In this document: piece after piece, positions 139 to 61,392 of the stretch
Numbering within the stretch: the stretch's first letter is position 1
How the letters are laid out: each line of letters opens with the position of its first letter
Assembly: GCA_050012755.1 (NCBI GenBank)
Contig: JBEKGO010000002.1
Location: forward strand, 32,001 to 96,000
DNA length: 64,000 nucleotides
Reading direction: 5' to 3'
From: Candidatus Bathyarchaeia archaeon
GTDB taxonomy: Archaea; Thermoproteota; Bathyarchaeia; Bathyarchaeales; Bathycorpusculaceae
Notes under the pieces: model-generated
Databases searched by the model: none
The model's input: the letters and a program-made list of their open reading frames with translations, nothing else
Told to the model about the DNA's origin: nothing
Made by a program: the position numbers and the translations under genes

Positions 139-320
139 ACTATCAGAAACCTGAAAGTAGCCTTTTCAAACCTTTTTTGTACTTTTTGGACCTTTTTGGT
201 ACGTTTCAAACCTTTCCTAACCTTTTCCAACCTTTTTGGTACGCAGCCTGCAAAGAATTCAAATCTTGAACTGAAAAAGCAACCCAAAACACAAAGAAAA
301 AAATTTGCCAGAAAAACTGC
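139..320 (+). repeat. Dispersed element copy 1: ~10-bp-period array plus conserved core
   Basis: Units such as ACCTTTTTGG/ACCTTTCCTA with AC every 9-11 nt (170,181,190,201,210,220,230,241), then GCAGCCTGCAAAG...AAAGCAACCCAAAACACAAAGAAAAAAATTTGC. Confidence 0.85.
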
Positions 321-398
321 AAAAAAAGCTTAGATTAACTTGAAGATATTAAATAAAATAAAAAGAAAAAAAGATTTTCTGGGGAAAGCAAGGAAAAG

Positions 399-2360
399 TT
401 ATTTACTGCCTAGTTGTTTGCGCAGTTCGCTGTAGGTTGCTTTTATGTCTTCGATTGAGCCTTCGTCTTCGATTGTTGATGTGTCGCCTAGTGGTGCACC
501 GGTTAAGACTGCTTTGAGGAGTCTGCGCATGATTTTACCGCTTCGTGTTTTTGGCAGCTTGTTAACTATGATGACGGCGTCTGGAGTTGCGATTGGACCA
601 ATGGTTGTTCTAACGTGTTTTATGAGTTCAGCGCGTAATTCGTCGGATGCTATGAAGCCGCTTCTTAGGACTACGAATGCCACTGGAACTTCGCCTTTGA
701 CTGCGTCTTCTTTGCCCATGACTGCTGCTTCTGAGACAGCTGGATGAGAAACCAATGCGCTTTCAAGTTCAACTGTGCCGATTCTGTGTCCTGCTACTTT
801 GAGAACTTCGTCGGATCTGCCGAGAAGCCAGAAGTAACCATCAGGGTCACGCACTGCGTAGTCGCCTGAGAAGTATATTCCGGGCCATCTGCCATAGTAT
901 GTTTGTTTGAAACGGTCTGGGTCTTTCCATATTTGCTGAAGCATGCCTGGCCATGGTGACTTGATTACAAGTACTCCTTTGTTTCCGGGTTGCACTGGCT
1001 GTCCTTTCTCGTCATAGATGTCTGCGTTGACTGAGGGCAGGGGGAGTGTTGCGCTGCCTGGTTTTAGGGGTGTTAGTTCTATGCCTGAGGCTGGAGAAAT
1101 CATGAAGCCGCCTGTTTCTGTTTGCCACCAGGTGTCGATTATCGGTAGTCTTTCTTTGCCTATGACGCGATAATACCATTTCCAAGCTTCTGGGTTTATT
1201 GGTTCACCTACTGAGCCAAGGATACGTAATGAGCTGAGGTCATGTTTGTTCACCAGGTCTTCGCCGAATTTCATGAACATACGCACAGCAGTTGGTGTAC
1301 CGTAAAGGATAGTTATGCCATGGGTTTCAATCATTTGCCACCAGCGGTCTTGGCCTGGGTAGTCAGGTGTGCCTTCGAATAGGAATGCTGTGATTCCGCT
1401 GCTTAATGGTGCATATACGTTGTATGTGTGTCCTGTGATCCAGCCAATGTCTGCAACGCACCAGTAAATGTCTTCGTCAGTTGGGTTAAAAGCCCATTTA
1501 AGTGTCCAGTACGCCCAAACAAGGTATCCGCCTATTCCATGCTGAACACCTTTTGGTTTACCAGTAGTTCCTGAAGTGTAAAGAATGAATAGTGGGTCGG
1601 TTGATTTCATGCTTTCTGGTTCTACATAGACGTTTGCGCCTGCATTTGCAAGTGCATCGTGATACCATATATCTCTGCCTTCTTTCATCTGAACTGGTTG
1701 GCCTGTTCGTTTAACAACTACGATTTTTTCGATGTTTGGCATGAGTGGTGTTGCACGGTCCGCGTTGTCTTTGATTCCTACTGGTTTTCCTCTTCGGAAA
1801 GAGCCGTCTGCTGTAACCAGGATTTTCGCTCCGCAATCGTTTACTCTGTCTGCTAATGCTTCAGCGCTAAATCCTGAAAAGACTACTGTGTGAACTCCAC
1901 CAATTCTTGTTGTGGCAAGCAAAGTTATTGGTAATTCTGGAATAACAGGTAGGAAAACTGCGACGCGGTCGCCTTTTTTGACACCTAAGTCTTTCAGTGC
2001 TTTGGCAAATTTGTTTACTTCTCTATAAAGTTGATAATATGTGTAAGTTTTGACTTCACCCATCTCGCCTTCCCAAATGTAAGCAAGCTTGTTTTTACGG
2101 TTAGTCTTCACATGCCTGTCTAAAGCGTTGTAGCAAATGTTTAGTTCTCCGTCAGGGAACCACTTGTAAAATGGCGGGTTTGAATCGTCCAGCGCTTTGC
2201 TGAATGGCTTGAACCAGTCGATTGCTTTTGCTTTTTCTGCCCAGTATTCTTGTGGATTCTTTAGTGATTTTTCCCATTCTTGTTTGCGTTTTTCTCCGTT
2301 AGAAATTTTTGCTATACTTGGACTATACTTTTCGTTGAAAGGTAAACTAGCTTCTGTCAT
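399..2360 (-). CDS. acs: Acetyl-CoA synthetase (AMP-forming)
   Basis: YTSGTTGKPKG AMP-binding motif, DTWWQTETGG, LPKTRSGKIMRR. Confidence 0.97.
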   Translation of the reverse strand: MTEASLPFNEKYSPSIAKISNGEKRKQEWEKSLKNPQEYWAEKAKAIDWFKPFSKALDDSNPPFYKWFPDGELNICYNALDRHVKTNRKNKLAYIWEGEMGEVKTYTYYQLYREVNKFAKALKDLGVKKGDRVAVFLPVIPELPITLLATTRIGGVHTVVFSGFSAEALADRVNDCGAKILVTADGSFRRGKPVGIKDNADRATPLMPNIEKIVVVKRTGQPVQMKEGRDIWYHDALANAGANVYVEPESMKSTDPLFILYTSGTTGKPKGVQHGIGGYLVWAYWTLKWAFNPTDEDIYWCVADIGWITGHTYNVYAPLSSGITAFLFEGTPDYPGQDRWWQMIETHGITILYGTPTAVRMFMKFGEDLVNKHDLSSLRILGSVGEPINPEAWKWYYRVIGKERLPIIDTWWQTETGGFMISPASGIELTPLKPGSATLPLPSVNADIYDEKGQPVQPGNKGVLVIKSPWPGMLQQIWKDPDRFKQTYYGRWPGIYFSGDYAVRDPDGYFWLLGRSDEVLKVAGHRIGTVELESALVSHPAVSEAAVMGKEDAVKGEVPVAFVVLRSGFIASDELRAELIKHVRTTIGPIATPDAVIIVNKLPKTRSGKIMRRLLKAVLTGAPLGDTSTIEDEGSIEDIKATYSELRKQLGSK

Positions 2361-2452
2361 TTAGATCATCCTAAATTGCTGGGAATGGTAAGATCTTAAG
2401 AATATAAGTTTTTCACTTGGTTATTAGAAAATAAAAAAAGAAATTGTTGTTT

Positions 2453-3067
2453 TTAGCTTGTTGGGTAAATTGGCAAGATAGTTTTATGGTGAGATTCATT
2501 TAAGACTTCAGCTAATCCGAGATATACCGCGCTTAAGCCGCATATGACGCCTTCGATGCCTACGAATGTATTGAACGTTATTGATCCAGACAGTACGGGG
2601 TTGTTAGTTAATTCTCTTATTGCAAGCATAAAGAACAGTACAAATAAGCTACCGAACACGAATTGCAAAGCTCGATTAGCCTTCAAAGTGCCAAAGAACA
2701 TGCCGAAGGTAAAGATTCCCCACATTATGAAGTAAGCTGCCAAAGATGACGAAGACGGTGCAAAACCAGCGAATTCAGGAAACTTCGGTAAAAGCAGAAT
2801 CATAACAAGACTCCACCAGAACAAGCCATAAGAAAGGAAAGCCACAGTACCGAAAGTGTTGCCTTTTCTGAACTCCATTGCGCCAACGATAATTTGTGCT
2901 ATTCCTCCGTAAGCAATGCCCATTGCTAAAACTACAGTATCCAACGGAATAACGCCTGCATTAACCAAGTTAAGAAGCACAGTAGTCATGCCAAAGCCGA
3001 GAAGCCCGAGAGGTGCGGGATTTGCCAATTTTGTTAATAGATTATCGCTCATTTTTTGTTTCTCCAA
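2453..3067 (-). CDS. satP: Acetate uptake channel, GPR1/FUN34/YaaH (SatP) family
   Basis: [15 protein letters not shown] signature, multiple TM helices, adjacent to acs. Confidence 0.93.
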
Positions 3068-3218
3068 ATGCTATCATTTTACCACTTCAATCATCATCTT
3101 TCATTTTAAAGCTTTACGGTGCTTTGACACGTTGATTTAGTGTTTACAAGATAGTTTTAGTAGTAAAGTTTATTGTAACGAACAAATTATATAGAATTCA
3201 CACTTTCTGAAAGGTGAT

Positions 3219-3929
3219 ATGATTTTAATGAAGTTCGAAACACGAATCATTGAAATTATACCTCGAACGTCCGATGTAACTAGCTACAGATTCCCTAGAC
3301 CCATAGAATTTACCTACAAACCAGGCCAAAATTTCATGATAACAATAAAACAAGAAAGCAAAGAGCTGACGCACCATTTCAGCTTTAGCAGCAGCCCAAC
3401 AGAAAAGGAACATTTTGAATTTACCAAAAAGTTAACTGACCATGAGTACTCGTTGACTCTAAAGTCGGCAAAGATTGGCGACTGGGCTTTAATAGATGCA
3501 CCATATGGACAATTCACTTTTGATGGAGAATACCCAAAAATTGCTTTGCTTGCAGGAGGCATAGGAATAACGCCGTTCATCAGCATAATCAAAAATGCAG
3601 CAGACAAACGTTTAGACGCGAAAATAACCCTTCTTTACGGTTGTCGCACTGAAAATGACATCGCATTCAAAAAAGAACTTGAAAACATGCAAAATGAAAA
3701 TAAAAACTTAAAAATGGTTTGCATAGTAAACCAGCCTTCAAACCAATGGACAGGGGAAACTGGCATAATCACGACCGACATGATTAAGAAAGCGTTACCC
3801 GACTACAAAGAAAACATATTTTACACCTGCGGACCACCGCCCATGGTAAAAGCGATGGAAGCAATTATCGAAAGCCTAGGTTTGCCTAAAAACCAGATGA
3901 AACAAGAGTATTTTACAGGTTACCCATAA
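3219..3929 (+). CDS. FAD/NAD(P)-binding oxidoreductase, ferredoxin-NADP reductase-like
   Basis: YKPGQ, FSFSSSP, LAGGIGITPF and YTCGPPPMV motifs. Confidence 0.9.
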   Translation: MILMKFETRIIEIIPRTSDVTSYRFPRPIEFTYKPGQNFMITIKQESKELTHHFSFSSSPTEKEHFEFTKKLTDHEYSLTLKSAKIGDWALIDAPYGQFTFDGEYPKIALLAGGIGITPFISIIKNAADKRLDAKITLLYGCRTENDIAFKKELENMQNENKNLKMVCIVNQPSNQWTGETGIITTDMIKKALPDYKENIFYTCGPPPMVKAMEAIIESLGLPKNQMKQEYFTGYP

Positions 3930-4069
3930 AAACAAAAGGAAAAAGATAATAAAAAAGGTTAATGAACCGAATATTTCCTCTGCAAGAGAAAAGTGTAATC
4001 ATTATTAGAGAAAATCGCCTGTAAAAAAAGGACCTATTCTAAAGGTCATATGTTAAAAGAAAAATTGTG

Positions 4070-5353
4070 TCATGGGTAAAACCTGCGAGTTGTTCTCGGG
4101 AAGGGTATTGCATCGATTATGTTGTCTAGATCAAGCATCCATGTTAAAAGGCGTTCAACCCCCATTCCGAAACCAACATGCGGCACAGTTCCATAGCGTC
4201 TTAGGTCAAGATACCACTCGTATTCTTCAGGTTTCAAACCCTGCGCTTTCATACGCTCGATAAGTAGGTCTTTGTTTTCTTCTCTTGAACCGCCTGTGCT
4301 GATCTCGCCGATTCGTGGAACCATCATGTCCACTGACATTGCAATTTCAGGATGTTCTTTGTAAGTCTTGCAGTAAAACGCTTTAATCGCTGTTGGATAA
4401 TCATAAACGAAGAATGGTTTACCGAAATCTTCAGCTAAAACCTTCTCATCTTCATAGCCTAAATCAGCACCCCAGCTCAAAGTGGGATTTTTCGCTTTAA
4501 GCCTGTCAATTGCTTCAGCGTAAGTTATGCGGGGAAATGGCGGCTGCACTGCTTTGAGCTTGTTTATGTCAGCGCCTAACTCTGCGAAATCCTTTTGGCA
4601 TTTTCCACCGATGGTTTGGCAAACATGGGTCATTAAGCCTTCTTCAAACTTCATTAAATCATCCATTTCAGCAAATGGCCATTCGCCTTCCATGTGCCAA
4701 TACTCAGTTAAATGCCTGATTGTTCTGCTTTTTTCCGCACGGAACGATGGAGCAATGCAGTAAACGTTTTCCAATGAGTAAATGAGAATTTCAAGGTAAA
4801 GCTGAGAGCTCTGTGTTAGGTATAGGTCTTGGTCGAAATATTTTAGACCGAAAAGTGTTGAGCCACCTTCGACTGCCGCTGAAATGAACATTGGTGGCGA
4901 AACCTCAGTGAAATTCTGCTGTTTGAAGTATTGGCGTGATACTTCTAAAACGTCGCCGCGAACTTTCATCATTAAATTCATTTTTCGGCTTCGGAGCCAT
5001 AGGTGACGCATGTCACGGATGAATTCTTCGCTTTTATCTTTTGCGATTGGGAATGTTTCTGCTAAACCGATAATTGTGATGTTTTCTGCGCTGATTTCAT
5101 ATCCGCCTGGAGCGCGTTTGTCTTCTTTTGCGGTACCCTCAAGGGTCAGCGAAGATTCAATTGTTAACCGTTGCGCTTCACTCCAACCGAGGCTGGTTTT
5201 CTTTACTGTACATTGGATTACCCCTGTTGAATCGCGGATTAATAGGAAAATGAGTTCTTTTCCTTCACGTTTGCGGTAAACCCAGCCGCGGACTGTTACT
5301 TTCTGGTCTTGGCAGCATCCTTCTAACACTTCGCTTATTTTTACTATAGCCAT
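4070..5353 (-). CDS. asnS: Asparagine--tRNA ligase
   Basis: N-terminal OB fold, YLTQSSQLYLE, FRAEKSRTIRHLTEY, YGTVPHVGFGMGVER. Confidence 0.93.
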   Translation of the reverse strand: MAIVKISEVLEGCCQDQKVTVRGWVYRKREGKELIFLLIRDSTGVIQCTVKKTSLGWSEAQRLTIESSLTLEGTAKEDKRAPGGYEISAENITIIGLAETFPIAKDKSEEFIRDMRHLWLRSRKMNLMMKVRGDVLEVSRQYFKQQNFTEVSPPMFISAAVEGGSTLFGLKYFDQDLYLTQSSQLYLEILIYSLENVYCIAPSFRAEKSRTIRHLTEYWHMEGEWPFAEMDDLMKFEEGLMTHVCQTIGGKCQKDFAELGADINKLKAVQPPFPRITYAEAIDRLKAKNPTLSWGADLGYEDEKVLAEDFGKPFFVYDYPTAIKAFYCKTYKEHPEIAMSVDMMVPRIGEISTGGSREENKDLLIERMKAQGLKPEEYEWYLDLRRYGTVPHVGFGMGVERLLTWMLDLDNIIDAIPFPRTTRRFYP

Positions 5354-5500
5354 CGAGCATCAACCATTTCCAATTAATACTTATTTTCAAACCTAAATGC
5401 CTATCGTTTCAAGTTATTCTTCACAATTTAGAAAATGATTAATGAAAAAACGGTGAAGTTTGGGTTTTACAGAAAAAAAATATTAAGCATGATTTTTCAG

Positions 5501-5575
5501 CCTGTGGTGTACGTGTGGCTACTATAGGCACTTCTGTGTACTTGCTTGTACTTTGAAGCACCTCTGTTTACGCGG
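5501..5575 (+). repeat. Degenerate 10-bp-period array (TAC/CAC anchors), no adjacent core
   Basis: gtAC gtgtggctAC tataggcAC ttctgtgtAC ttgcttgtAC tttgaagcAC ctctgtttAC gcgg. Confidence 0.6.
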
Positions 5576-5644
5576 TCTCCAAACAAGTCAGCTTAGACTC
5601 AGAAAACCAACTTAAAGCAAGCTGAAAAAAATGCTGTCCAAAAC

Positions 5645-5760
5645 TGACCTTTTTAGACCTTTCCGAACCTTTTTAAACCGCAACCTGCAAAAGATTTAAG
5701 CTTAAAAGCAAAAAAGCAAACCAAAACACAAAGAACAAAATTTGCGCAAAAATCCGTCAA
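5645..5760 (+). repeat. Dispersed element copy 2: 10-bp array plus conserved core
   Basis: ACCTTTTTAG ACCTTTCCGA ACCTTTTTAA ACC then GCAACCTGCAAAAGATTTAAG...AAAGCAAACCAAAACACAAAGAACAAAATTTGC. Confidence 0.85.
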
Positions 5761-5870
5761 TAATAGCGAAAACAACAAGATAATTGAGAAACAAGAAAGC
5801 AACATTTCTGCACATCGATGATTGTTAATTTGCCCCGCAATTCTTAAATCGCCCTTGCTATGAGCATAGT

Positions 5871-7253
5871 TTGATTAAAATAATGCAAGGCTCTCCCGAA
5901 TCAAACTACAAACTTAAAGCATTGAAAATTTCAGCGGTTGCAATCTTTAGCGTTGTTATTGTTGAAGTTTCAGTAGGTTTAACCGTTAACAGTCTAGCTA
6001 TTTTGAGCGACGGTTTACACGCTTTACTTGATGCTGTGTCAACTATTATGTTGTTTTTTGCGGTTCGCGCTTCAATCAAACCCCCTGACGAAGAACACAC
6101 TTACGGACATGAAAAGTTTGAAACGATAGGTGGACTCATCGGTGGCATAGTGTTAATTGCAGTTGCATTCTTAATTTTTTATGAAGCTGCCCTTAGACTA
6201 ATACATATAACGCCTATTGCTCAAAGCGTAGAGTTTGCAGGCTTCATCGCAATCGCTTACGCTCTTTTCATAGCTTCTTTAAGGGTAACGGTTTTCAGGA
6301 AAACAGCACATATTGAGAGCCCTTCAATGAGAGTTGGTCTTTACGACGCCATTTCCGATTTAAGCTCGACCTTGATTGCGCTATTGGGGTTTGGCTTGGC
6401 CACTTTAGGCTTTTTATACGGAGATGCCATAGCTTCAATCTTCCTTGGAGTTATGCTTAGTTATTTGAGCGTTAAACTTGTCAGATTCAGCGTAATGGAA
6501 CTCAGTGACACCGCTTCAAAAGAGCTTGTTCAGAAAACAAGAAAAGTAATTCTTTCACATCAAGAAGTTGTGAAAACCGAGAATCTAAAAGTCCGAAAAG
6601 TAAGCTCTAAAGTTTTCATTGAGGCCTCAGTGCAGGTTTCAAGTCATATGAGCTTGGAAGAAGCACACTCTTTGGCATCCAAAATTGAAGATGACCTAAA
6701 ACAAACATTCGGAAACGTAGATGCAACCACTCATATTGAACCATCTGAAAAAGATGCAACAATGGATCTGTTAGTGCAGAACCTTGCTATGGTAGATGGG
6801 GTAAAAGAGGTACATGAAATCTCCACTATTTACACTGGCGGCAAATTCTACATAACCTTGCATGCTTATGTTAACCCTGAACTGTCCGTCGCAGAAGCAC
6901 ATAAAATCGCTGAGATCATAGAACAAAGAATGCATTCTGAAATTAAACCACTTGAAAATGTGACGGTTCATGTTGAGCCCTCAAACATAGCGGGTCCATC
7001 CATCGTTGTAGATGAAGTTCAACTCAAAAATCTTGTCGACGAAATTACTAAAGGTATAGCGGCTCATATACATATAAGGAAAATAGTAACCTACGCCGCT
7101 GAAGGAAAACGATATATTAACATCGACTGCTGCTTCACCGAGCAAATCCAAATAAAAGAAGCACACAAAATCGCATCACAAATTGAAAAAGAAACCAAAG
7201 AACGCTTTGCAAACGCAGTTGTAACTGTTCATATTGAACCTGAATGCGCGTAA
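5871..7253 (+). CDS. Cation diffusion facilitator transporter with three tandem C-terminal ZT_dimer domains
   Basis: SLAILSDGLHALLD, PPDEEHTYGHEKFE; three EAHxxAxxIE...H(I/V)EP repeats. Confidence 0.9.
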   Translation: MIKIMQGSPESNYKLKALKISAVAIFSVVIVEVSVGLTVNSLAILSDGLHALLDAVSTIMLFFAVRASIKPPDEEHTYGHEKFETIGGLIGGIVLIAVAFLIFYEAALRLIHITPIAQSVEFAGFIAIAYALFIASLRVTVFRKTAHIESPSMRVGLYDAISDLSSTLIALLGFGLATLGFLYGDAIASIFLGVMLSYLSVKLVRFSVMELSDTASKELVQKTRKVILSHQEVVKTENLKVRKVSSKVFIEASVQVSSHMSLEEAHSLASKIEDDLKQTFGNVDATTHIEPSEKDATMDLLVQNLAMVDGVKEVHEISTIYTGGKFYITLHAYVNPELSVAEAHKIAEIIEQRMHSEIKPLENVTVHVEPSNIAGPSIVVDEVQLKNLVDEITKGIAAHIHIRKIVTYAAEGKRYINIDCCFTEQIQIKEAHKIASQIEKETKERFANAVVTVHIEPECA

Positions 7254-7370
7254 ATCTATAATGAAATAATGACAAAAGGAATTGTGAACAAACTTTCTGA
7301 AATAAATGGGGGTAATACTTTAATTATCATGAAATACAGATATTGTAACAGTCTGAAAGTGAAGAGAATT

Positions 7371-9605
7371 ATGCTATCTCGCTCAGCGGTAGTAAAGCTA
7401 AAAGCAATTTTCGTAATTGATCTAATTATTGTTGGCGCTGCAGCTGGAGCCTTCTTTTATCTTCAAAATGAAGGTATGATAGCACATGGGATCAAACCAG
7501 CCAAGTTTACACTGCAAGACCTAACTATCAGCCCTTCGGGAGCAAATGTCGGTGATTCCGTTCAAATTTCAGTTAATGTCACAAATGTTGGCGACTTAGG
7601 AGGCAACGACACAGTTAATTTTGAAATAAATGGCACCATTAAAGATGTTGAAAATCTAACTTTGGCAGCGGGCGACTCTGAAATAGTTTTGTTTAACGAT
7701 GTCGAAACAAAAGAAGGAAGCTACACTGTTGCAGTCGGTGCTCTGACGGGAAACTTTACAATTAACCCAGCACCGCCTGAATCAAGTAAAATCATCATAT
7801 CAAATTTGGTGGCAGATCCATATGAGGTTTGGACCAATGATACAGTTACCTTAGCGGTAAACGCACAAAATCCTAGTACAGAAGACGATAAACTCAGAGT
7901 TACAGTGACAGTTGATGATATAGTTGTGGAAACTTCTACAATTAAATTAGCGGCTGGAGCAGCCCAAAGTATTGCGTTCAATGTTACGGCGACAACTGAA
8001 GGAACACATAAGGTTAAGGTAAACACGTTGTCTGGTTCTTTCAAAGTCGTTGCGACTGGTTACCACACGATTGAAGTTACTAGATCAGGCGGCGGTAGCA
8101 CAGCCTTGCCCTTTACGTTTGACGGACAAGCAGAAACCATGCCATATTTTGCGCTTCTTCCAGTAGGAGAACACTCCATATCTGTTCCATCGCCTTTTAA
8201 CGTTGGGACTGGCGTATTGGCATTTTCAAGTTGGAACGACGGAGTTAATAGCGCTTCAAGAACGATCGATTTGGAAGAATGGACTATATTGGTTGCTACA
8301 TACACTGTAATTAGTGGATATGCATCATGCCCATCGCTATATACTTGGAATGGAACGGGCTACTCTTACGTTACTGATGTGGCAAACTCAGGATGGCTTG
8401 GCTATCTAGGAACGATAAGTAACATAGGCACAATTACATTCACCGGAGGAAATCCGTGGGATTATGTAAAACTTGACAAAAGCCAACTAGCAACAAAAAT
8501 TGTTAATGGAAACAGCTACTTCGACATGGTTCTTTCTCAAGAATGGGATGAACTTTTCTATTTAGACTCAGCAACCTTGGTGGCTGTTGACCACCCAGTA
8601 GGCACAGACGCTTACACAACCATGACCAATTATCTAAACAAAGGTTCAACAGGACAGATTTACACAGTAAACTCAAGTAACCTCTTGTCACCCATTGCAG
8701 CAACCGATGGAAATGGAAAAAACGTTCTTCCCGACATCTTGAAACAAGATGGAGTTTTCATTCCTGCCACATATGGAGACCAAAGTTCAGCGTGGAACAA
8801 CATAACAATGAACCAGCTAACAGTTGATCTTGGTAATCTATCTTCGGCTCAACAAATAAAACTCGTATTTACTGCAATTGTGGATTGGGGACCATATCAA
8901 TCCTATTACAACTGGATAAACCAATTCAAGAATGCAGCTGCTCAGGGACTAGTACCAAACGGCACAGTACTTACACCTGATTCATACATGGAAATAAAAG
9001 CTGCAAATGGCACCTGGGTACGCGTTCCACAAGACAGACAGATACCAATACCTTCAGATTCCAACCCTAGAACTTTTGTCGTAGATTTAACAGGACTTTT
9101 CCCACAAGGCATAAATGACTATCAAATACGAATAAGCAACTTCTGGAACGTAACCTACGACTACATAGGAATAGACACAAGTAATCAACAAAATATTACA
9201 GTCCAAAAAATCAGTCCTATTGCAACTCTCAGCCAATTCTGCAGCACAAATTCCACTTCTTCTGGAAACTTCACAAGGTACGGTGATGTAACAGCGTTAG
9301 TTCAAAATGTAGATGATATGTTTGTAATTGGAAGACAAGGTGACCAAGTTGAGCTTGAATTCCCAACGGGCAACCTTTCGGCGCCTGCACCAGGTATGGT
9401 GAGAGATTATTTCCTATTCATATCCTGTTGGTTTAAAGACCCGCCGGGAGAATGGGGATACGGGTTTAATTTTACAGTTAACCCGATGCCGTTTATGGCT
9501 ATGAGTGGATTTCCGTATCCAGCAAGCGAGAGTTACCCCTATGACGCATCACACTTAGCTTACCTCGAACAATTTAATACAAGGGTAATACCGCCTTCAA
9601 ACTAG
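7371..9605 (+). CDS. Membrane-anchored extracellular protein with CARDB/Ig-like domains and a large C-terminal domain
   Basis: N-terminal TM helix; two CARDB-like repeats (ISVNVTNVGD, LAVNAQNP); SCPSLYTWNG motif; likely start ATG 7371 within ORF 7269..9605. Confidence 0.75.
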   Translation: MLSRSAVVKLKAIFVIDLIIVGAAAGAFFYLQNEGMIAHGIKPAKFTLQDLTISPSGANVGDSVQISVNVTNVGDLGGNDTVNFEINGTIKDVENLTLAAGDSEIVLFNDVETKEGSYTVAVGALTGNFTINPAPPESSKIIISNLVADPYEVWTNDTVTLAVNAQNPSTEDDKLRVTVTVDDIVVETSTIKLAAGAAQSIAFNVTATTEGTHKVKVNTLSGSFKVVATGYHTIEVTRSGGGSTALPFTFDGQAETMPYFALLPVGEHSISVPSPFNVGTGVLAFSSWNDGVNSASRTIDLEEWTILVATYTVISGYASCPSLYTWNGTGYSYVTDVANSGWLGYLGTISNIGTITFTGGNPWDYVKLDKSQLATKIVNGNSYFDMVLSQEWDELFYLDSATLVAVDHPVGTDAYTTMTNYLNKGSTGQIYTVNSSNLLSPIAATDGNGKNVLPDILKQDGVFIPATYGDQSSAWNNITMNQLTVDLGNLSSAQQIKLVFTAIVDWGPYQSYYNWINQFKNAAAQGLVPNGTVLTPDSYMEIKAANGTWVRVPQDRQIPIPSDSNPRTFVVDLTGLFPQGINDYQIRISNFWNVTYDYIGIDTSNQQNITVQKISPIATLSQFCSTNSTSSGNFTRYGDVTALVQNVDDMFVIGRQGDQVELEFPTGNLSAPAPGMVRDYFLFISCWFKDPPGEWGYGFNFTVNPMPFMAMSGFPYPASESYPYDASHLAYLEQFNTRVIPPSN

Positions 9606-9720
9606 CATTTCCCAGAAAAACAGCTCACAACGACAAAAAAGGCAACATGTAAATCATGTCTAAACCTTTAAATGGTTATTTTCTTATTTTGCTTAATAAA
9701 AACTTTGCAAGAGCACAATT

Positions 9721-10419
9721 ATGTCATTAATACCCCAACTCTCTAATCCGTATTTAGGAGCGCTTATTGGCGGTTTGGTGTATGGATTAGCGGTTTGTAC
9801 TGCAACTTGCCTCCCGTATGTAGCAAGCTACATTGCAGGAACCGGCGCTGATTTCCGCAAGGGTGTTATCATAACGGCATTTTTTAATTCAGGAAGAATT
9901 GCAAGTTACGCAATAATTGGAGGATTAGTCGGTTTGTTTAGCGGTCTATTCCGATTATTTGTTTCCAGTTCAGCTATTTCGCCATTTCAAATTTATTCTT
10001 CATTTGCCTTTGGTATAGTAACCATATTAATCGGCAGTTATATTTTGCTCAAGCTAAAATCAGGGTCCACATGCGATTCTCAACATGTTAAAGCAATAGA
10101 TATGAATAAGAAAACAGGCAGATTTGGGTTTGATTTTGGCGCTTTTTCCCTTGGTCTAAGCAGAGGACTAATCATATGTCCACCTTTGATAGCACTTCTA
10201 GTTTATTCGCTGCCATTTTCTAGTCCAGTGGGTAGTGTAGGTTTGGCTGTTTTGTTTGGTTTAGGAACAACGATTTCCCCGATACTCTTTCTCGGGGGAC
10301 TCACGGGCTGGCTTCTTAATAAAGCACCATTACTCAGAAAATGGATTTCCATTGCAGGTGCAGGAATACTAATAGTGCTTGGAATTGTTACGTTAATCAA
10401 TTCAGCAATCCAAATTTAG
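9721..10419 (+). CDS. DsbD_2/TauE-like (cytochrome c biogenesis-type) membrane protein
   Basis: VCTATCLP, GRIASY, ICPPL, FGLGT motifs; polytopic membrane protein. Confidence 0.8.
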   Translation: MSLIPQLSNPYLGALIGGLVYGLAVCTATCLPYVASYIAGTGADFRKGVIITAFFNSGRIASYAIIGGLVGLFSGLFRLFVSSSAISPFQIYSSFAFGIVTILIGSYILLKLKSGSTCDSQHVKAIDMNKKTGRFGFDFGAFSLGLSRGLIICPPLIALLVYSLPFSSPVGSVGLAVLFGLGTTISPILFLGGLTGWLLNKAPLLRKWISIAGAGILIVLGIVTLINSAIQI

Positions 10420-10443
10420 CAATAATTGAAATGAGGAAAAAAA

Positions 10444-50077: not shown

Positions 50078-50106
50078 ATATAAAAGTATGTACGCAGTAC
50101 TGACAA
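50042..50106. promoter_or_regulatory. Inverted-repeat operator at divergent promoter
   Basis: TATGTCATT-gaca-AATGACATA (50057-50078) abutting TATATAAAAG; outer pair TGTCAGT/ACTGACA. Confidence 0.65.
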
Positions 50107-50122
50107 GGAAGCATAAGAGAAC

Positions 50123-50534: not shown

Positions 50535-50809
50535 GTAGTGTAAAAGGAATCATTGAATCATACTCAAACGACGCTTCGAGAGAAAAACTTGTTACCCTTG
50601 ATGTTCTGCTGAAGGCTGTCGATGCACGTGGCAAACAACCAATAGTCTTTTCCAAGTTCTCAAACAAAGCCTCCCTGAATGGTAAACATTTCTGTGTTGA
50701 TTGTGGTAAGCGTCTAAAAACTCACAGTGCAAAAAGGTGCGCCTCTTGTAATATGAGGCTAGTCGGCAAAAACCATGTGATAACGCGGAAACTAAAGGGG
50801 AAGGCCTAG
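50522..50809 (+). CDS. Small Zn-finger protein
   Basis: CVDCGK...RCASC. Confidence 0.6.
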   Translation: MASLSSVKGIIESYSNDASREKLVTLDVLLKAVDARGKQPIVFSKFSNKASLNGKHFCVDCGKRLKTHSAKRCASCNMRLVGKNHVITRKLKGKA

Positions 50810-50811
50810 CA

Positions 50812-50928
50812 TTGAAGACGAAATTAACCTGTAACAAGTGCGCTACGCTTCAATGTTTTGTTAGAGAAAGCAAAGATGGTTGCCGAGATGACGAACTTGA
50901 AAAGCAGACGGAGATCAGCAAACATTGA
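50812..50928 (+). CDS. 38-aa Cys-rich protein
   Basis: MKTKLTCNKCATLQCFVRESKDGC...; TGA overlaps the TTG start of the helicase. Confidence 0.5.
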   Translation: MKTKLTCNKCATLQCFVRESKDGCRDDELEKQTEISKH

Positions 50929-52826: not shown

Positions 52827-52827
52827 G

Positions 52828-52956
52828 TTGTGCGATTTGTTTTTTGCTCAACAAATTAGGGTAGAACGAACCCTCAAGGAGATTAAGACTTTCAATATTG
52901 AGGCGATTTTACTCTCTGAAGAATTGAAACGTTGCGAGGTCCAGCTCCATGATTAG
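52828..52956 (+). CDS. Small hypothetical protein
   Basis: TTG immediately after the helicase stop; overlaps the next gene start. Confidence 0.45.
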   Translation: MCDLFFAQQIRVERTLKEIKTFNIEAILLSEELKRCEVQLHD

Positions 52957-53137
52957 AACCGTCAAAAATTACCCCTGTAAATTTGTAACCGAGTGTAGGT
53001 CTAAGGGTAAGTTTGACCCTGAAAAATTCAGTTGCAATCATGGTGGTGGAGTTTCATGTGTGACTTGGTGCCGTCTTACAGACCGAGAAATTACTTCTAA
53101 TCCAAAATTGCTTGAGAAGGTAGGCAATTATGAGTGA
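52949..53137 (+). CDS. Small Cys-rich protein
   Basis: Five Cys; overlaps the integrase start. Confidence 0.55.
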   Translation: MIRTVKNYPCKFVTECRSKGKFDPEKFSCNHGGGVSCVTWCRLTDREITSNPKLLEKVGNYE

Positions 53138-54308
53138 AGCCCAAACAAAAACAATCGTAAAATGCCCTGAATGTGGCAGCCAAAAAGCCTTCAAAGACGG
53201 AATAAGGAAACTTTCAAACAAGCAAGAAAAGCAGCGTTATGTTTGCCGTGACTGTGGGTATCGCTATACAAAGCATACTAGCTTAAATGTCAATGACAAC
53301 AATAACGGAACTAACCAAATAAGCGCAATATACCTAGGTAAGGCGAAAAATTTGGTTTCCGCACAGAAATTAAACATTTGTGCGAGAGATGAAAGACTAC
53401 CAGCAGAAGCAAAAGGCTTAGTGGCTCAGTTCTTGGCATACTTGGAAAAAGAAGGCTTTTGTAAAGAAACAGAATATCCGAATTTGATAAGGCGACTTGC
53501 AAAACTTGGAGCTAATCTACTAGAACCCGAAACAGTCAAAGAAGCTATAGGCAGAATGACGGTTAAAAACGGAATGAAACTTCAATATGTATGTGCATAC
53601 AGCGCTTTTGCAACCATGCTTAAGATTCAATGGGAACCACCAAAATATCAACAGGAAGAAATAATACCCTTCATACCTGACGAATCAGAACTTGATGCCT
53701 TAATCAGTGCAGCTAGAACCAAAAAAATGGCAGGATACCTACAAGCACTCAAAGAAACTTATGGCGATCCATCTGAAGTACTTAGAATCGAATGGATAGA
53801 TATTTCAGAAAAAGAGCAAACAATCAAAATCAATCACCCAGTAAAACACCATAATCCGAGAACCCTTCAAGTATCTAGCCGACTTCTTTCAATGCTTAGT
53901 TGTTTGCCACATGATAAACCAAGAGTATTTAGCGGAACTTATGACAGCATAAGCATAGCTTACTGTAGATTGAGAAAAAGACTAGCTGAAACACAACAAA
54001 ACCCCAGGTTACTTGCAATAGAATTTAGAACCTTTAGACACTGGGGAGGAACAATGATCGCCTTCCACACAAACGGAAACGTGCTAATCGTCAAGAAACT
54101 ACTCGGCCACAAAAGCGTCAACAACAGCATGAAGTACATCGGAATGATTAACTTCAAAGACGATCAGTTTGAAACCGCACACGCAACAACTCTAGAGGAA
54201 ATCGAGAAACTAAGGCAAGCAGGTTGGCTAAAATACGATGAAATAACAATCAACGGAATGCAAATACATTGTTACAGCAAACCTAAGAGGTTTTCAAGCT
54301 ATGTCTAA
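53130..54308 (+). CDS. Tyrosine recombinase/integrase with N-terminal Zn ribbon
   Basis: CPECGS...QRYVCRDCGYRY; TYGDPSE, FRTFRHW, LLGHK, SMKY. Confidence 0.88.
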   Translation: MSEAQTKTIVKCPECGSQKAFKDGIRKLSNKQEKQRYVCRDCGYRYTKHTSLNVNDNNNGTNQISAIYLGKAKNLVSAQKLNICARDERLPAEAKGLVAQFLAYLEKEGFCKETEYPNLIRRLAKLGANLLEPETVKEAIGRMTVKNGMKLQYVCAYSAFATMLKIQWEPPKYQQEEIIPFIPDESELDALISAARTKKMAGYLQALKETYGDPSEVLRIEWIDISEKEQTIKINHPVKHHNPRTLQVSSRLLSMLSCLPHDKPRVFSGTYDSISIAYCRLRKRLAETQQNPRLLAIEFRTFRHWGGTMIAFHTNGNVLIVKKLLGHKSVNNSMKYIGMINFKDDQFETAHATTLEEIEKLRQAGWLKYDEITINGMQIHCYSKPKRFSSYV

Positions 54309-54423
54309 GCTGAAAAAAAGTGTTGGCAATACGAAAAATCATGGTACGATAAAGATATATCTCCCTCGGACGTTCTATGAACAATACCTTTAGTGCTATA
54401 AGACGAATATGTGGTGAAGGGTT

Positions 54424-55884
54424 ATGGCAGAAGTCGTCTTGACTGCTGATAGAACTTTAATGAGTAATTATCATAATAACGAATTCCTCGGGTTTGGTAC
54501 ATGTGCCCCTCCCAATTTTATTCCAGAATGGCTTTACAGCTATCTATTCTTTCCCCCATTAAGAACAAATAGTGGCCATCCCTATCAAGCACCCTATGGG
54601 TTAAGGAAAATTGAAGCTCAACTCCTGAAAGAAGGCTTCCACGTTGAAACGGTAAGCCCAAACCATTTAGGCAGACATCTCGCTAACGCAAAAGTTCTCG
54701 GCATACACACCATGGATCCATTTGGATTAGGTCCGGCTTCTACAACTCTTGCCTCCCTGTTCAAAAAAGAGCCCTACCTTGCGAAGCACTTTCACAGTCT
54801 ATTGAAAAGCTCAGCAATTAAAAAAGCGAAACAAAATGGCTTAAAAGTTATTGTTGGAGGACCTGGCGCATGGCAATTCCATTACAGAGAAAAAGCCGCC
54901 AAGGATTTGGGAATTGACTGCGTAGTTGAAGGAGAAGCAGAAAACATAATTGGGAAAGTATTCAAAGGTGCAATAGAAGGAGAGCCGATTTCAAGCCATT
55001 ATGAAGTTACAGTTGGGGAAACTCCCACCTTAGAAGAGATTCCCGATATTGTTCAGCCTTCGGTTAACGGTTTAGTCGAACTTGGCAGAGGCTGCTGCCG
55101 AGGCTGCCAATTTTGCAACGTTACACTAAGGCCTCTACGTTGGTACCCACTTGAAAAAATTAATCGCGAATTAAGCGTTAATATTGATTCAGGCAACACT
55201 GGCACATGTTTACATGCAGAAGACGTTATGCTATATGGTTCCAACAATACGATACCAAATGAAGAGAAACTTGTACAACTACATGAATTAGTAACAAAAA
55301 AGGTTACAGGACTAAGTTGGAGTCACTGTTCCGTTGCAGCTGTTGCGTCAAAGCCCAAGTTGCTATCGAAATTGTCAGAGCTTATCTTGCAGAATCAAAC
55401 GTGGTGGGGAGCAGAAGTCGGAATTGAAACTGGTTCTTCAGAGATAGCGAAGAAGATCATGCCTGCGAAGGCTCATCCATTCAGCGCCGATAATTGGCAC
55501 GATGTAGTCGTTGACGGCATGGGTGTAATGCACGATAACATGCTCGCTCCAGCTTGCACTTTGATTGTGGGATTACCTGAAGAACAGGAATCAGATATTA
55601 TGAAAACTATGGAGTTAGTTGATGATCTTAAAGACATGCGTAGCCTTATTGTGCCATTGTTTTTTGTTCCACTGGGCAAATTGAAAAATGAAGACTGGTT
55701 TAACGATACCCAACTTAGCGAAGTCCATAAACAACTTTTGTTTGCCTGCGCCGAACACGATTTCCACTGGGTCGACAATCTGCTTGACTTGTCTTTCTCA
55801 GGCAAATGGTACCAGCACATATCCAAAGAGTTCTACAAAGGCTTCTCAGCAATCGCAAAGCGCAAAGTACGTCAGATAGAATAG
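54424..55884 (+). CDS. Radical SAM protein (B12-binding-domain type)
   Basis: IVGGPG, VEGEAE, RGCCRGCQFC, GIETGS. Confidence 0.9.
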   Translation: MAEVVLTADRTLMSNYHNNEFLGFGTCAPPNFIPEWLYSYLFFPPLRTNSGHPYQAPYGLRKIEAQLLKEGFHVETVSPNHLGRHLANAKVLGIHTMDPFGLGPASTTLASLFKKEPYLAKHFHSLLKSSAIKKAKQNGLKVIVGGPGAWQFHYREKAAKDLGIDCVVEGEAENIIGKVFKGAIEGEPISSHYEVTVGETPTLEEIPDIVQPSVNGLVELGRGCCRGCQFCNVTLRPLRWYPLEKINRELSVNIDSGNTGTCLHAEDVMLYGSNNTIPNEEKLVQLHELVTKKVTGLSWSHCSVAAVASKPKLLSKLSELILQNQTWWGAEVGIETGSSEIAKKIMPAKAHPFSADNWHDVVVDGMGVMHDNMLAPACTLIVGLPEEQESDIMKTMELVDDLKDMRSLIVPLFFVPLGKLKNEDWFNDTQLSEVHKQLLFACAEHDFHWVDNLLDLSFSGKWYQHISKEFYKGFSAIAKRKVRQIE

Positions 55885-55952: not shown

Positions 55953-56029
55953 GCCGTCGTGGCTCAGCCCGGTAGAGCGGCTGGCTGTTAACCAGTCGGT
56001 CAAAGGTCCGAATCCTTTCGACGGCGCCA
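55953..56029 (+). tRNA. tRNA-Asn(GTT), intronless, CCA encoded
   Basis: Acceptor stem GCCGTCG/CGACGGC, anticodon arm GCTGG-CTGTTAA-CCAGT, T arm AAAGG-TCCGAAT-CCTTT. Confidence 0.95.
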
Positions 56030-58464: not shown

Positions 58465-59745
58465 CTAGGTTTTTCTTTCACTTATTTCACAATGTTGTTT
58501 TAAAAGCGCCACGGAATTAGCGGGTAAATCTCGCTCAACCATAAAGTTTGGTCCCACCCAACTATTGACACCTACCTTAACGCCAGGCAAAAACAACGAC
58601 TTAATCCCCGTTTTCACGTTATCACCTAACACTGCGCCAAGTTTTCTTCTACCTGTGTTAACCAACTGGTCTTTCACCACCATTTTGATTGATCCGGCGT
58701 CTAAACGGTAATTAGCCATAACTGTCCCTGCGCCTAAATTGCAGTGCTCACCAAGAATGCTGTCGCCAACATAAGATAAGTGTCCAACATGAGTCCTCTC
58801 CATAATTATGCTATTTTTGACTTCACAAGCGTTGCCGACACGAACATTTTTCCCTAAACTTGTTCCTGGACGAATGTAACAGTTTGGTCCTATGTCACAT
58901 TCTTCATCGATAAAGCAGGGTCCTTCAATATATGCGCCTGAACGAACACGCGCTGATTCTGCAACTGAGACTGGACCGATTAGGTGAGCACCTTGTTCAA
59001 TTGTCCCTAAAACTTGGAAATCCATGCGTCTGAGCGCCCAATTGTTAGCGTCAAGCAAATCCCAAGGTCTGCCTACGTCAAACCAGTCGTCTTTTGAGAG
59101 TTCGGCAGCTAAAACTGTTTTGTCCTCGCTTGCAAGCATTGTCAATGCGTCAGTGAGCTCCGTTTCACCACGGATTGAGTTTTTTGTTTGTTTTATTTGG
59201 CTAAAAATCTCTTGAGAGAGAATGTAGACTCCAGCGTTAGCTAAGTTTGAGGGCGCTTTTCCCGCGGCAGGTTTCTCAACTATGCGCTTAACCTTTTTCT
59301 TGTCGTTAAATTCAATTATGCCGTAGTTTTCAGGTTTATCGACAGGCACAACACCTACGACCGCAGAGGTTTTCCCCGGCTCATAGGACTGCAAAACTTT
59401 GTTAACAGTATCTGAACCAAACAATAAGTCACCATAGATGAGAACAAAATCGCCATCCACATAAGATTCGGATACTGCTGTGGCGTTCCCCGTACCCAGA
59501 ATCTTTTCCTGTTCAGCATAACTGATTTGTAAGCCAAGTGTTTCACCATCCCCGAAGCACTGGCGAATTGCATCACCCATGTAATGAGTAACAATTAATA
59601 CTTCTGTTAATCCAGCTTTCTTCACGGCTTCCAAGCAAAACTGCAAAATTGGTTTTCCACCGACCTTGATCAAATGTTTAGGCCGCGTTGCTGTTATCGG
59701 CAAGAGCCTGACGCCTTCGCCAGCCGCAAGTAAAACTGCTTTCAT
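58465..59745 (-). CDS. glmU: Bifunctional sugar-1-phosphate nucleotidylyltransferase/acetyltransferase
   Basis: LAAGEGVRL, RPKHL, hexapeptide repeats, HLSYVGDS. Confidence 0.9.
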   Translation of the reverse strand: MKAVLLAAGEGVRLLPITATRPKHLIKVGGKPILQFCLEAVKKAGLTEVLIVTHYMGDAIRQCFGDGETLGLQISYAEQEKILGTGNATAVSESYVDGDFVLIYGDLLFGSDTVNKVLQSYEPGKTSAVVGVVPVDKPENYGIIEFNDKKKVKRIVEKPAAGKAPSNLANAGVYILSQEIFSQIKQTKNSIRGETELTDALTMLASEDKTVLAAELSKDDWFDVGRPWDLLDANNWALRRMDFQVLGTIEQGAHLIGPVSVAESARVRSGAYIEGPCFIDEECDIGPNCYIRPGTSLGKNVRVGNACEVKNSIIMERTHVGHLSYVGDSILGEHCNLGAGTVMANYRLDAGSIKMVVKDQLVNTGRRKLGAVLGDNVKTGIKSLFLPGVKVGVNSWVGPNFMVERDLPANSVALLKQHCEISERKT

Positions 59746-61118
59746 TTCGTTTCAGCCTCAACTTGTTTCTTTATTACTGCATTGACCTTTTGAGTTATAT
59801 CATTTGCCACTGCTAACGTTTCTCCCTCAACAGTTAAACGGATTAAAGGTTCAGTTCCAGAAGCACGAATAAGCAACCAACCCTCCCTTAACGCCAATCT
59901 AATGCCATCAACTGTTGAGAAGTCAAGGTAACTCGGAAAAGCAGTTTTTACCGCGCTGCCAACCTTTTCAACGATTTTATATTTTGATTCATTTTTGCAA
60001 ACGATGTTTTCGCGTTGTGTAACGTACTCTGGAACCTCAGAAATAAATTGACTCAAGTTCTTGTTTTCTTTTTCGAGCGCCATCAACATAAGTGCCGCAG
60101 AAAGGGGTCCGTCTGGGCAAAAGTGATGTTTTGGATGCACCCATGCGCCACATGGTTCGCCTCCGAAAACTGCGCTCGATTCTTTTACAGCTTCCGATAC
60201 ATAAATGTCGCCGACCTTAGTACGGATAACCCTGCCACCTTGCGCTTGTGCCATAGTTTCAACACACATCGATGCTTCAACATTTGTTACGACAGTCCCG
60301 CCGTTATTTCCCTTCAGTGCATAGGCAGAATAAGCAGCTAACGAACGGTCAAAGTTAACAAAAACACCTTTCTCATCAACAAATGCCACTCGGTCACCGT
60401 CTCCGTCAAAAGCAATGCCCAAGTCAGCACCAAGCACCTTGACAACGTTTGCCAAGTCTTGAAGAGATTCAACGGTCGGCTCAGATTTTCGCGCTGGGAA
60501 ATAGCCATCTGGTTGAGCGTTTAAAGTAGTGACCTTGGAGCCCAATGCTTTGAGCATAGCTGGGGCAACGCTGTAAGTAGCCCCGCATCCTGGGTCGACC
60601 ACCACTCGCCACTGCTTTTTGAGTGAGACAGCTTTCATGGCCATATCCAAATAAATTTGTGCAGCGTCAACTGGAGTGCTTTTGCCGAGACTACGCCAAT
60701 TAGCCAATTTAAAAGTCTCTTTTGCAACGATTTTTTCTATGGCATCTTGGTCTTCGTCAGTGTAGGATAAGGTGTCGCTTCTGAACACTTTTATTCCGTT
60801 GTATTGCGGAGGATTATGTGAAGCTGTAAGCATGAAACCAACATCAGCGCCAAAAGCTTTCACGGCATAAGCCAAAGTTGGAGTGGGAACAATTCCTGTT
60901 AAAAGAACGTTTGCGCCAGTCGACAGCAAAGCGGAAACCAAAGCATCTTGAAGCATAGGTCCTGAAACTCTTGTATCAGATGCTACAAGTGCCAATTTGG
61001 CGTTTGCATGCGTAGCCACTGCTAAACCAACTTTGCAGGCAAGTTGCGGTGTTAAGTCAACATTTGCTAAGCCTCTTACGCCTGAGCTTCCAAATAGTTT
61101 AGCCATCTCAGTCACCAA
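59742..61118 (-). CDS. glmM: Phosphoglucosamine mutase / phosphohexomutase
   Basis: LFGSSGVRG, TASHNP, FDGDGDR, RASGTEP. Confidence 0.9.
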   Translation of the reverse strand: MVTEMAKLFGSSGVRGLANVDLTPQLACKVGLAVATHANAKLALVASDTRVSGPMLQDALVSALLSTGANVLLTGIVPTPTLAYAVKAFGADVGFMLTASHNPPQYNGIKVFRSDTLSYTDEDQDAIEKIVAKETFKLANWRSLGKSTPVDAAQIYLDMAMKAVSLKKQWRVVVDPGCGATYSVAPAMLKALGSKVTTLNAQPDGYFPARKSEPTVESLQDLANVVKVLGADLGIAFDGDGDRVAFVDEKGVFVNFDRSLAAYSAYALKGNNGGTVVTNVEASMCVETMAQAQGGRVIRTKVGDIYVSEAVKESSAVFGGEPCGAWVHPKHHFCPDGPLSAALMLMALEKENKNLSQFISEVPEYVTQRENIVCKNESKYKIVEKVGSAVKTAFPSYLDFSTVDGIRLALREGWLLIRASGTEPLIRLTVEGETLAVANDITQKVNAVIKKQVEAETK

Positions 61119-61204
61119 TTAAGTATAATCGTTACTGCATGATAATGAAGGTGCTTAAAATAATTTAGTAGCTTTAATTTAGATGCAGGTCAATATTGAA
61201 ATAT

Positions 61205-61392
61205 GTCGATACTTATCGACTAATTTTGACTTTATTTGACTTTTCTCGACTTATTTCGACTTTTTTTGACTTATTTTAACTTATTTTGACTTTTCTTGAC
61301 TTTTTTTGACTCAACCTGCAAAAGATTCAAACTCTAAAACAAGAAAGCAACCTAAAACACAAAGAACAGAAAACTGCACAAAAATCTGTCAA
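61205..61392 (+). repeat. Dispersed element copy 5: ten 10-bp units plus conserved core
   Basis: ACTTATCGAC TAATTTTGAC TTTATTTGAC TTTTCTCGAC TTATTTCGAC TTTTTTTGAC TTATTTTAAC TTATTTTGAC TTTTCTTGAC TTTTTTTGAC then TCAACCTGCAAAAGATTCAAA...GAAAGCAACCTAAAACACAAAGAACAG. Confidence 0.88.

Follow-up and report, generated by a model that had tools for sequence, protein, structure and literature searches.

What are the non-coding units, each a run of short boxes spaced by one helical turn and joined to a fixed block, that recur in the intergenic DNA of this archaeal genome, and what purpose might they serve? The window examined here, 64,000 nucleotides of a contig (JBEKGO010000002.1, C2 below) from a Candidatus Bathyarchaeia archaeon, holds four of them. 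From their anatomy, copy number, linkage to a gene family, the fold of the encoded protein, co-occurrence across genomes and gains and turnover between species, we consider that on balance they are probably operator-core modules of PhS018-like or MraZ-like proteins, the copies in the window being orphans that stand without the gene. The genome (G000) comprises 2.41 Mb in 65 contigs at 41.6% G+C, and the window sequence is also present in peat and wetland metagenome runs. Coordinates without a contig label are positions in the window; C-numbers denote contigs.

In each of the four window units a 10-nt-periodic array is joined directly to a core of ~75 nt rich in A and C. All four core-plus-array loci described in the initial annotation were confirmed in place by sequence, alignment and Tandem Repeats Finder. 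The features are as follows.

164-243, + strand: array of unit 1, an orphan, ACCTTTTTGG/TACG type; Tandem Repeats Finder periods 10, 20 and 40, strong lag-10 periodicity.
240-340, + strand: core of unit 1, TACGCAGCCTGCAAAG...AAAAAGCAACCCAAAACACAAAGAA...; nhmmer match C2:32241-32322, E=3.4e-17, and alignment.
5505-5645, + strand: degenerate unit, a GTACTTnnTT array and a decayed core, in tandem upstream of unit 2; nhmmer.
5645-5679, + strand: short array of unit 2, GACCTTTTTA type; Tandem Repeats Finder 5647-5679, period 10.
5678-5765, + strand: core of unit 2; nhmmer E=3.6e-18.
18295-18328, + strand: remnant of the second core box, without array; nhmmer E=0.13, C2:50295-50328, and alignment.
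29935-30020, - strand: core of unit 3; nhmmer E=3.7e-18.
30020-30125, - strand: array of unit 3, GGGACGAAnn proximally and GACTTTTTGG distally; Tandem Repeats Finder 30020-30107, periods 10 and 20.
61216-61311, + strand: array of unit 4, GACTTnTTTT type, ~9 decamers; Tandem Repeats Finder periods 10 and 30, score 129.
61309-61395, + strand: core of unit 4; nhmmer E=1e-15.

The core in the window loci takes the form NAC-N-CAACCTGCAAAC, ~21 variable bases and AAAAAGCAACCYAAAACACAAAGAAC; its consensus is GACGCAACCTGCAAAC, ~21 variable bases and AAAAAGCAACCTAAAACACAAAGAACAAAA, frequently extended to ...CCGTCAATAACT, and its strand asymmetry is strong (49% A, 24% C). Autocorrelation of the arrays peaks solely at lags 10, 20 and 30. 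The decamers carry 3-6 conserved and 4-7 variable positions, and every array preserves a specific word of 3-6 nt, such as ACACA or GTGACGT, amid varying neighbouring positions. In 61% of the array units next to the core, the conserved triplet is the same as the core's opening three bases; by unit 7 the share has dropped to 26%, and in units 10-12 it is 0-2%. Positions 5-9 of array units 1-4 match the core decamer in only 9-28%, with no decay gradient, and array units and core start have only their first 3-4 bases in common. Since the triplet is shared and positions 5-9 are unlike the core, the architecture follows the rule (XYC-N7)n and then XYC-N-CAACCTGCAA.

The initial annotation had seen neither a conserved reading frame nor terminal inverted repeats, and both statements hold; no conserved open reading frame (ORF) runs from the core onward, the ATG-led ORFs of at least 40 aa near 28 of 112 units forming no family. 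Its fifth, degenerate core does lack an array, but is itself no more than the weak match at 18295-18328. The degenerate unit at 5505-5645 scored E=0.18 with a profile of the four window cores and 3.4e-07 with one of 112 copies, and its core aligns with the sole unit of a relative (G043).

The four-core profile recovers 112 copies genome-wide at E<=1e-3, and a second profile built from these recovers 133. Core and array belong together throughout the genome, as had been supposed: the 70 nt preceding a core have a mean lag-10 self-identity of 0.61, compared with 0.26 for 5000 windows drawn at random from the genome, and 108 of the 112 cores lie beside an array above the control's 99th percentile of lag-10 periodicity. 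Conversely, 69 of 83 strongly 10-periodic stretches adjoin a core, and most of the remaining 14 adjoin a weak one. Arrays in G000 span 3-13 decamers (median 7). ORFs of at least 150 aa overlap only 2 of the 133 cores, though they cover 72% of the genome. Thirty-nine units are solitary and the others form head-to-tail clusters of 2-5 at a spacing of 128-195 bp, without a strong rule for the flanking genes (convergent 12, divergent 21, tandem 26, the last 14 + 12 by direction). The units are the leading repeat of the genome, accounting for 156 of 336 self-BLAST pieces at >=85% identity, and several stand at contig ends; when four DNA runs were compared with window positions 1-20000, their contigs were fragmentary, with extra depth and loose ends at cores, and yielded no variation in array length or presence that could be used.

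The initial annotation took the array unit to be specific to its locus. It is specific to a subfamily instead: the array types form ~10-15 conserved subfamilies that recur across many loci and in other species. A CACACA-type array, free positions included, is found at C4:11418, C33:25153, C46:157 and C60:10299; a GTGACGT-type array has the same sequence at six loci, and the same types occur in other species. Clustering 131 arrays of G000 with 66 from other genomes gave 15 multi-member clusters, 10 of them with G000 arrays and 8 of those also with arrays of other genomes. Paralogous copies within one subfamily vary in unit number.

The units are linked to a gene. Among 120 metagenome loci sampled by the two-box core pattern, 118 carried units (160 in total), and clustering of 400 flanking ORFs brought out a ~90-aa protein family at a median distance of 55 nt from the unit, always on the opposite strand and at the array end. 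The link thus attaches to the array and not to the core. G000 encodes eight paralogs of this ~91-aa family, two of which lie at contig ends and were not assessable. Across about 28 species and the metagenome contigs, the order gene, array, core holds in 56 of 57 assessable genes (6/6 in G000, 24/24 in metagenome loci, 26/27 in other species of the genus), with the unit on the opposite strand and the core start 20-260 nt upstream. An independent count found 27 of 28 linked, with lag-10 identity >=0.5 in 23 of 28. The start codon lies ~35-50 nt past the distal end of the array, with the gene pointing outward. Read on that strand, the parts succeed one another as core, array, ribosome-binding site and gene; the array reads (N7-GTN)n there, and the CACAC type reads GTGTG.

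The protein and the repeat also occur together across genomes. The family is present in 28 of 29 genomes with the exact core pattern against 42 of 91 without it (odds ratio ~33, related genomes not being independent), and in 12 of 14 genomes with a BLAST-detected core against 2 of 10 without. Protein identity correlates with array identity (Mantel r=0.20, reached by 23 of 3000 permutations), but core identity shows no such correlation (r=0.02). Where two proteins are >=85% identical, their arrays are 77% identical, against a background of ~39%. Box type is most closely tied to columns 16, 10 and 18 of the protein alignment, which flank a conserved N17-R18 loop; this loop may be equated with the one that holds Lys13 and Arg15 in MraZ. 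In other families of the order the gene follows a short upstream decamer array, and a diverged core follows in one case (G030). The family comprises at least 862 clusters in a large protein collection, the named ones nearly all hypothetical. A relative without BLAST-detectable core carries three consecutive genes of the family (G012:C1:7626-10973), which could represent the family without the high-copy repeat.

As to the fold of this protein, the family profile matches PDB entry 2GLW (E=0.0056), which is PhS018 of Pyrococcus horikoshii. AlphaFold gives a confident model (predicted local distance difference test, pLDDT, 90.1). Foldseek places 2GLW first (E=2.4e-4, template-modelling score, TM, 0.72) and has several MraZ structures in its top ten, the MraZ entries 9SZ7, 9R4J, 9QLG and 1N0E scoring a probability of 0.85-0.96. 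VIA-align superposes the model on 2GLW with Z=12.3 and a root-mean-square deviation of 2.0 over 84 of 92 residues; the next chain scores 9.7 and unrelated barrels at most 7.5. The protein is thereby predicted to be a single-chain swapped-hairpin or cradle-loop barrel, PhS018-like and of the AbrB/MazE/MraZ class. PhS018 is described as an uncharacterised archaeal relative of the DNA-binding swapped-hairpin fold of AbrB, MazE and MraZ, and is itself a predicted DNA binder (PMC4333400).

MraZ offers a model for how such proteins may use such arrays. According to a structural account, MraZ binds GTG(G/T) boxes (GTG(G/T)-N6) at 10-bp spacing, one subunit per box; in the cryo-electron microscopy structure the cradle of one subunit fills the major groove of each box, the subunits dock on one face of the DNA, and transcription starts within the first box, with the gene after it (PMC12957436). 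The proposal of a one-helical-turn-phased platform for a repeat-binding protein, made in the initial annotation, gains support from this spacing together with the 56/57 linkage to genes predicted to have an AbrB/MraZ fold.

Binding, the specificity of paralogs for arrays, the role of the core and the mode of spreading are what we infer, as follows. Each unit would be the upstream control region of a multi-paralog gene family for ~91-aa barrel proteins, in which every helical turn, read on the strand of the gene, bears a single short box; the array would be a set of one-turn-phased operator boxes. By analogy with MraZ, one barrel may dock into the major groove at each box, neighbouring barrels would be aligned along one DNA face across 5-10 turns, and the row could control a promoter in or beside the array, resulting in autoregulation. 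The core, common to all paralogs, may be a common promoter, leader or nucleation element; our preferred guess is a shared promoter or leader on the gene's strand. Modules of array and core have multiplied without the gene (~125 orphans against 8 genes in G000), and would disperse and recombine among intergenic sites both as single units and as tandem clusters of mixed type. Such orphans may provide extra binding platforms or regulated promoters for neighbouring genes. In the window all units are orphan modules: no family gene lies within it, the nearest being at C2:15854-16126, ~16 kb before its start. At three of these four units the family-gene position is taken by a gene of the host, for AspRS, DUF362 or phosphoglucomutase, and the neighbours overall encode an acetyl-CoA synthetase, AspRS, a cation-efflux protein, a presenilin-like protease, DUF362, phosphoglucomutase and a PfkB kinase.

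Several results weigh against this proposal. The core is the most conserved part of the unit, and the MraZ analogy does not account for it. The organism's own TATA word, which peaks at -47 to -38 from the start codon, has no fixed place in the units on either strand. Host genes stand at the gene position beside orphan clusters in only slight excess (37 vs 27). Eight members scanned gave no Pfam family below E=0.09, and none of the weak matches was MraZ or AbrB. Shared descent of neighbours could alone yield much of the correlation between protein and array. Finally, 18 of 131 G000 arrays resemble the gene-linked arrays of G000 itself (>=65% identity in register), and 77 resemble those of at least one genome. 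Most orphans therefore have no obvious cognate protein in the assembly; many may have none in G000, or its gene may be unassembled.

Comparison between genomes shows that close relatives have gained, lost and exchanged units at shared spacers. Of 120 genomes of the genus, 29 contain the exact core pattern, G000 being the richest (34 matches), and none contains a reversed control pattern. A BLAST search with one core was positive for 14 of 24 further genomes of the genus but for 0 of 16 from other families of the order. None of the four closest relatives examined has unit 3 in its presenilin-DUF362 spacer, where the alignment shows a clean gap of ~190 bp. The L31e-eIF6 spacer measures 70-140 bp in unit-free species and contains 1-2 units of differing subfamilies, in both orientations, in G000, G020, G055, G009, G044 and G063. 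The PGM-PfkB and AspRS-CDF spacers likewise contain units that differ in subfamily, number and orientation by species. The upstream array shows linkage to no more of the core than its first ~20 nt, and the downstream array to no more than the 3' part; the two arrays are uncorrelated across the core (rho 0.00, 51 units). As the two arrays are unlinked, cores appear to be places of recombination, and the spread of orphans fits insertion beside existing copies and recombination within cores. An exact 20-mer from the unit 3 flank had no match in the metagenome contigs.

Two further elements came to light in these comparisons. A conserved ~400-bp insert in the L31e-eIF6 spacer of G055 (L148, ~3400-3800) and G009 (L149, ~3430-3830), starting near GGGGCAGAAGAA...GAGTTAGGCGGATTTAGCC, does not belong to the repeat units; it could represent a non-coding RNA or some different small element. 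In other Bathyarchaeia metagenome-assembled genomes (MAGs; L025, L034, L041, L043, L045, L049 and L078), a core variant with an intact second box lacks the 10-nt array. Words resembling GAAAGTCGCA, in sequence richer in G+C, stand on either side of this variant, which may be a separate branch of the family.

The turnover between species also suits a different explanation, the best of the rivals although in our judgement unlikely: gene, array and core may form a small selfish mobile cassette, the orphans being non-autonomous derivatives and any regulation of host genes incidental. The small protein, together with a recombinase or with host recombination, would then use the arrays as subterminal sites for binding and the core as an end or a site of recombination. 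The presence of unit 3 in G000 and its absence from the four relatives, the three spacers whose units vary by species and which are short when unit-free (70-140 bp), the patchy presence in the genus (29/120), the rank of the units as leading repeat located at contig ends, and the unlinked arrays that point to recombination within the core all agree with it. So does an enrichment near toxin-antitoxin genes: 7 of 26 PIN genes have a unit within 1 kb, a modest excess over the 199 of 2329 ORFs that do (Fisher p=0.0055). On the other side, the four window units have no consistent terminal inverted repeats, only A/T-rich low-complexity matches, and a hairpin signal is absent. At the 39 solitary units, whose ends are fuzzy, the longest word shared by the flanks averages 5.69 against 5.61 in shuffled pairings. 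G000 encodes neither a reverse transcriptase nor TnpB, and its one DDE transposase is not linked to units. The sole Y1 transposase family is unassociated (13 of 29 unit genomes vs 29 of 91 others), several unit-rich genomes being without Y1_Tnp. None of 10 tyrosine-recombinase matches in G000 falls within ~10 kb of a unit, no enzyme family recurs among the 400 ORFs flanking the 160 units of the 120 metagenome loci, and 0 of 15 viral-contig pattern matches pass the unit profile.

As to the genes around the units, unit-dense contigs encode toxin-antitoxin pairs, small winged-helix regulators, ribosomal-protein operons and sugar-nucleotide genes. PIN with an AbrB-type antitoxin, MazF, and HEPN with a nucleotidyltransferase cluster among units on C33, C54, C60, C61, C43 and C13, and a toxin-antitoxin island on C41 has no unit. 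RmlD, GDP-mannose dehydratase, NTP transferases and GT4 recur beside units, here and in metagenome contigs (C13:53009-56534, C54:7884-9179, window 58465-61115 and metagenome loci L258, L287 and L289), and variable surface-glycan regions may be favoured as unit sites. Targeting to tRNA genes is not above chance, 5 of 35 lying within 1.5 kb of a unit where 8.7% is expected. A five-unit cluster stands between divergent tRNA-Thr and tRNA-Leu genes (C4:10647-11858), and a four-unit cluster follows tRNA-Ile on C34.

The arrays might instead act as RNA, an improbable alternative in which a transcript would run from the core on the gene's strand through the array and serve as a repetitive leader or non-coding RNA that titrates the protein or is bound by it. 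The order core, array, ribosome-binding site and gene on that strand would suit such a transcript, as would the strand asymmetry of the core; in Mycoplasma, moreover, MraZ boxes lie at and after the transcription start (PMC12957436). Folding speaks against it, with a mean z of +0.2 on both strands and only 1 of 40 and 0 of 40 units below -2, and a canonical TATA box stands at no fixed place. The initial annotation had raised the chance of a known RNA family; Rfam returned none for the units, only tRNA and the eL15 leader reaching the gathering score in the window and no unit in three scanned tandem clusters matching at E<=0.1. In addition, the characterised members of the protein's fold class are described, in the available part of PMC4333400, as DNA binders.

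Slightly less probable still is a purely structural role, in which the arrays would be phased bends or would position histones or other chromatin proteins, with the A-rich core as a protein-free gap. An A3 or T3 run in 61% of decamers, a median A/T-G/C period-10 power of 0.65 against 0.19 in intergenic controls, two histone genes in the genome and array lengths centred at ~70 bp are in its favour. However, A/T-G/C periodicity rises above the 95th percentile of the control in only 54 of 131 arrays, A-tracts are missing from some types (GAGACGCAGG), the array-specific words are kept while their neighbours vary, which selection on shape alone does not predict, and the adjacent gene is left unexplained. 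The histone phasing considered in the initial annotation is thus not needed, even with two histone genes present. Very improbable is that annotation's other proposal, recent local and polar slippage or the output of a repeat-adding enzyme at the core edge: the triplet identity that falls away from the core (61% to 0-2%) and the varying unit number among paralogous copies of a subfamily would suit it, but the base-for-base conservation of arrays across paralogs and species, variable positions included, goes most of the way to refuting it, and the 9-28% match at positions 5-9 of units 1-4 shows no decay gradient.

Two other features of the window lie outside the units. The mobile island was said to carry no copy, and none was found within 38.9-55.9 kb. 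This gene block without Pfam matches (38895-55884), which ends beside a tRNA gene (55953-56026), has the look of an integrated virus or plasmid. Among its ORFs are one for a D5-type primase-helicase (50925-52823) and two, at 38895-39920 and 53130-54305, that weakly resemble tyrosine recombinases. At 31651-31700 the Rfam eL15-Euryarchaeota leader lies upstream of the eL15 gene (42.6 bits vs a 33.7-bit threshold), in a host that belongs to Bathyarchaeia.

If the units are operator-core modules, the element looks like a new kind of archaeal repeat, a gene-family control region copied without its gene. The analysis links the leading, and assembly-breaking, repeat of soil and peat Bathyarchaeia genomes with a hypothetical-protein family (at least 862 clusters) and with the PhS018 fold, which was solved in 2006 without a known target and gains a likely role. 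Should binding be confirmed, MraZ-style reading, with one barrel per turn on short boxes, would be present in Archaea too, would have diversified into many specificities, and would involve operator modules able to multiply like mobile repeats and so rewire gene control. A bolder extension, which we hold to be doubtful, is decamer-coded DNA addressing: each AbrB-fold protein would read its own box and polymerise on 5-10 boxes, more than 100 landing pads would exist per genome, and the shared mobile module would seed a programmable nucleoprotein-filament network that switches or insulates neighbouring genes. This would constitute an archaeal regulatory and chromatin layer of a new kind, spread by repeat proliferation.

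How does the element compare with known systems? The initial annotation did not recognise it as CRISPR, MITE (miniature inverted-repeat transposable element) or REP (repetitive extragenic palindrome). The 10-nt period, the absent inverted repeats and the absent hairpin agree with that judgement. A CRISPR leader and array resemble the unit in being polar, with a conserved A/T-rich block abutting a periodic array of constant and variable parts. The period there is ~60-70 nt, made of ~23-50-bp repeats with unique spacers of similar length; here it is 10 nt, there are no spacers of informative length, and arrays are copied whole. No cas families appeared among the scanned neighbours, no search having been aimed at cas. 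Terminal inverted repeats of the MITE kind are not found in the four window units. BIMEs (bacterial interspersed mosaic elements) and REP clusters of enterobacteria are likewise high-copy intergenic repeats in mixed-subtype tandem clusters, frequently located right behind genes. A REP is a hairpin-forming palindrome with a RAYT (Y1) transposase as its partner; the units have neither a hairpin palindrome nor co-occurrence with RAYT/Y1. Integron attC sites, which form single-strand hairpins from imperfect inverted repeats and stand beside gene cassettes and an IntI integrase, do not fit either, with no hairpin signal, no nearby tyrosine recombinase and mixed gene orientation between units.

Cyanobacterial STRR (short tandemly repeated repetitive) heptamers and TAACTGA repeats share short-period intergenic direct repeats with a conserved word and free positions. 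Their period is 7-8 nt, they have no attached core or linked gene, and they reportedly change fast, whereas the present arrays, with lags of 10, 20 and 30 only, are conserved and linked to a gene family. Plasmid iterons and ParR-type centromeres are helically phased direct repeats beside the gene of a cooperative, autoregulating small binder. They occur once per replicon with partition or replication genes; here there are more than 100 chromosomal copies, with no such partners among the examined neighbours. Literature on Bathyarchaeia repeats and archaeal decanucleotide repeats outside subscription journals yielded no account of the element.

The closest comparisons are PhS018 and MraZ. PhS018 is the nearest match in structure and sequence, of near-equal length and archaeal; it differs in being only an uncharacterised predicted DNA binder, for which the available part of the source reports no target site (PMC4333400). 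MraZ, which belongs to the bacterial dcw operon, is longer (~140-150 aa vs 91 aa) and has 3-4 boxes where 3-13 are found here, and the present family has no sequence-level membership. The many paralogs with different boxes, the extra 75-nt core, the hundreds of gene-less copies and the archaeal host are also unlike MraZ. Like the predicted barrel of the present family, MraZ is of AbrB type and made of one chain, and its gene comes immediately behind a row of short direct-repeat boxes whose period is 10 bp (PMC12957436). This MraZ-type operator arrangement, 10-bp boxes upstream of a single-chain AbrB-fold gene, is found here at 56 of 57 assessable genes.

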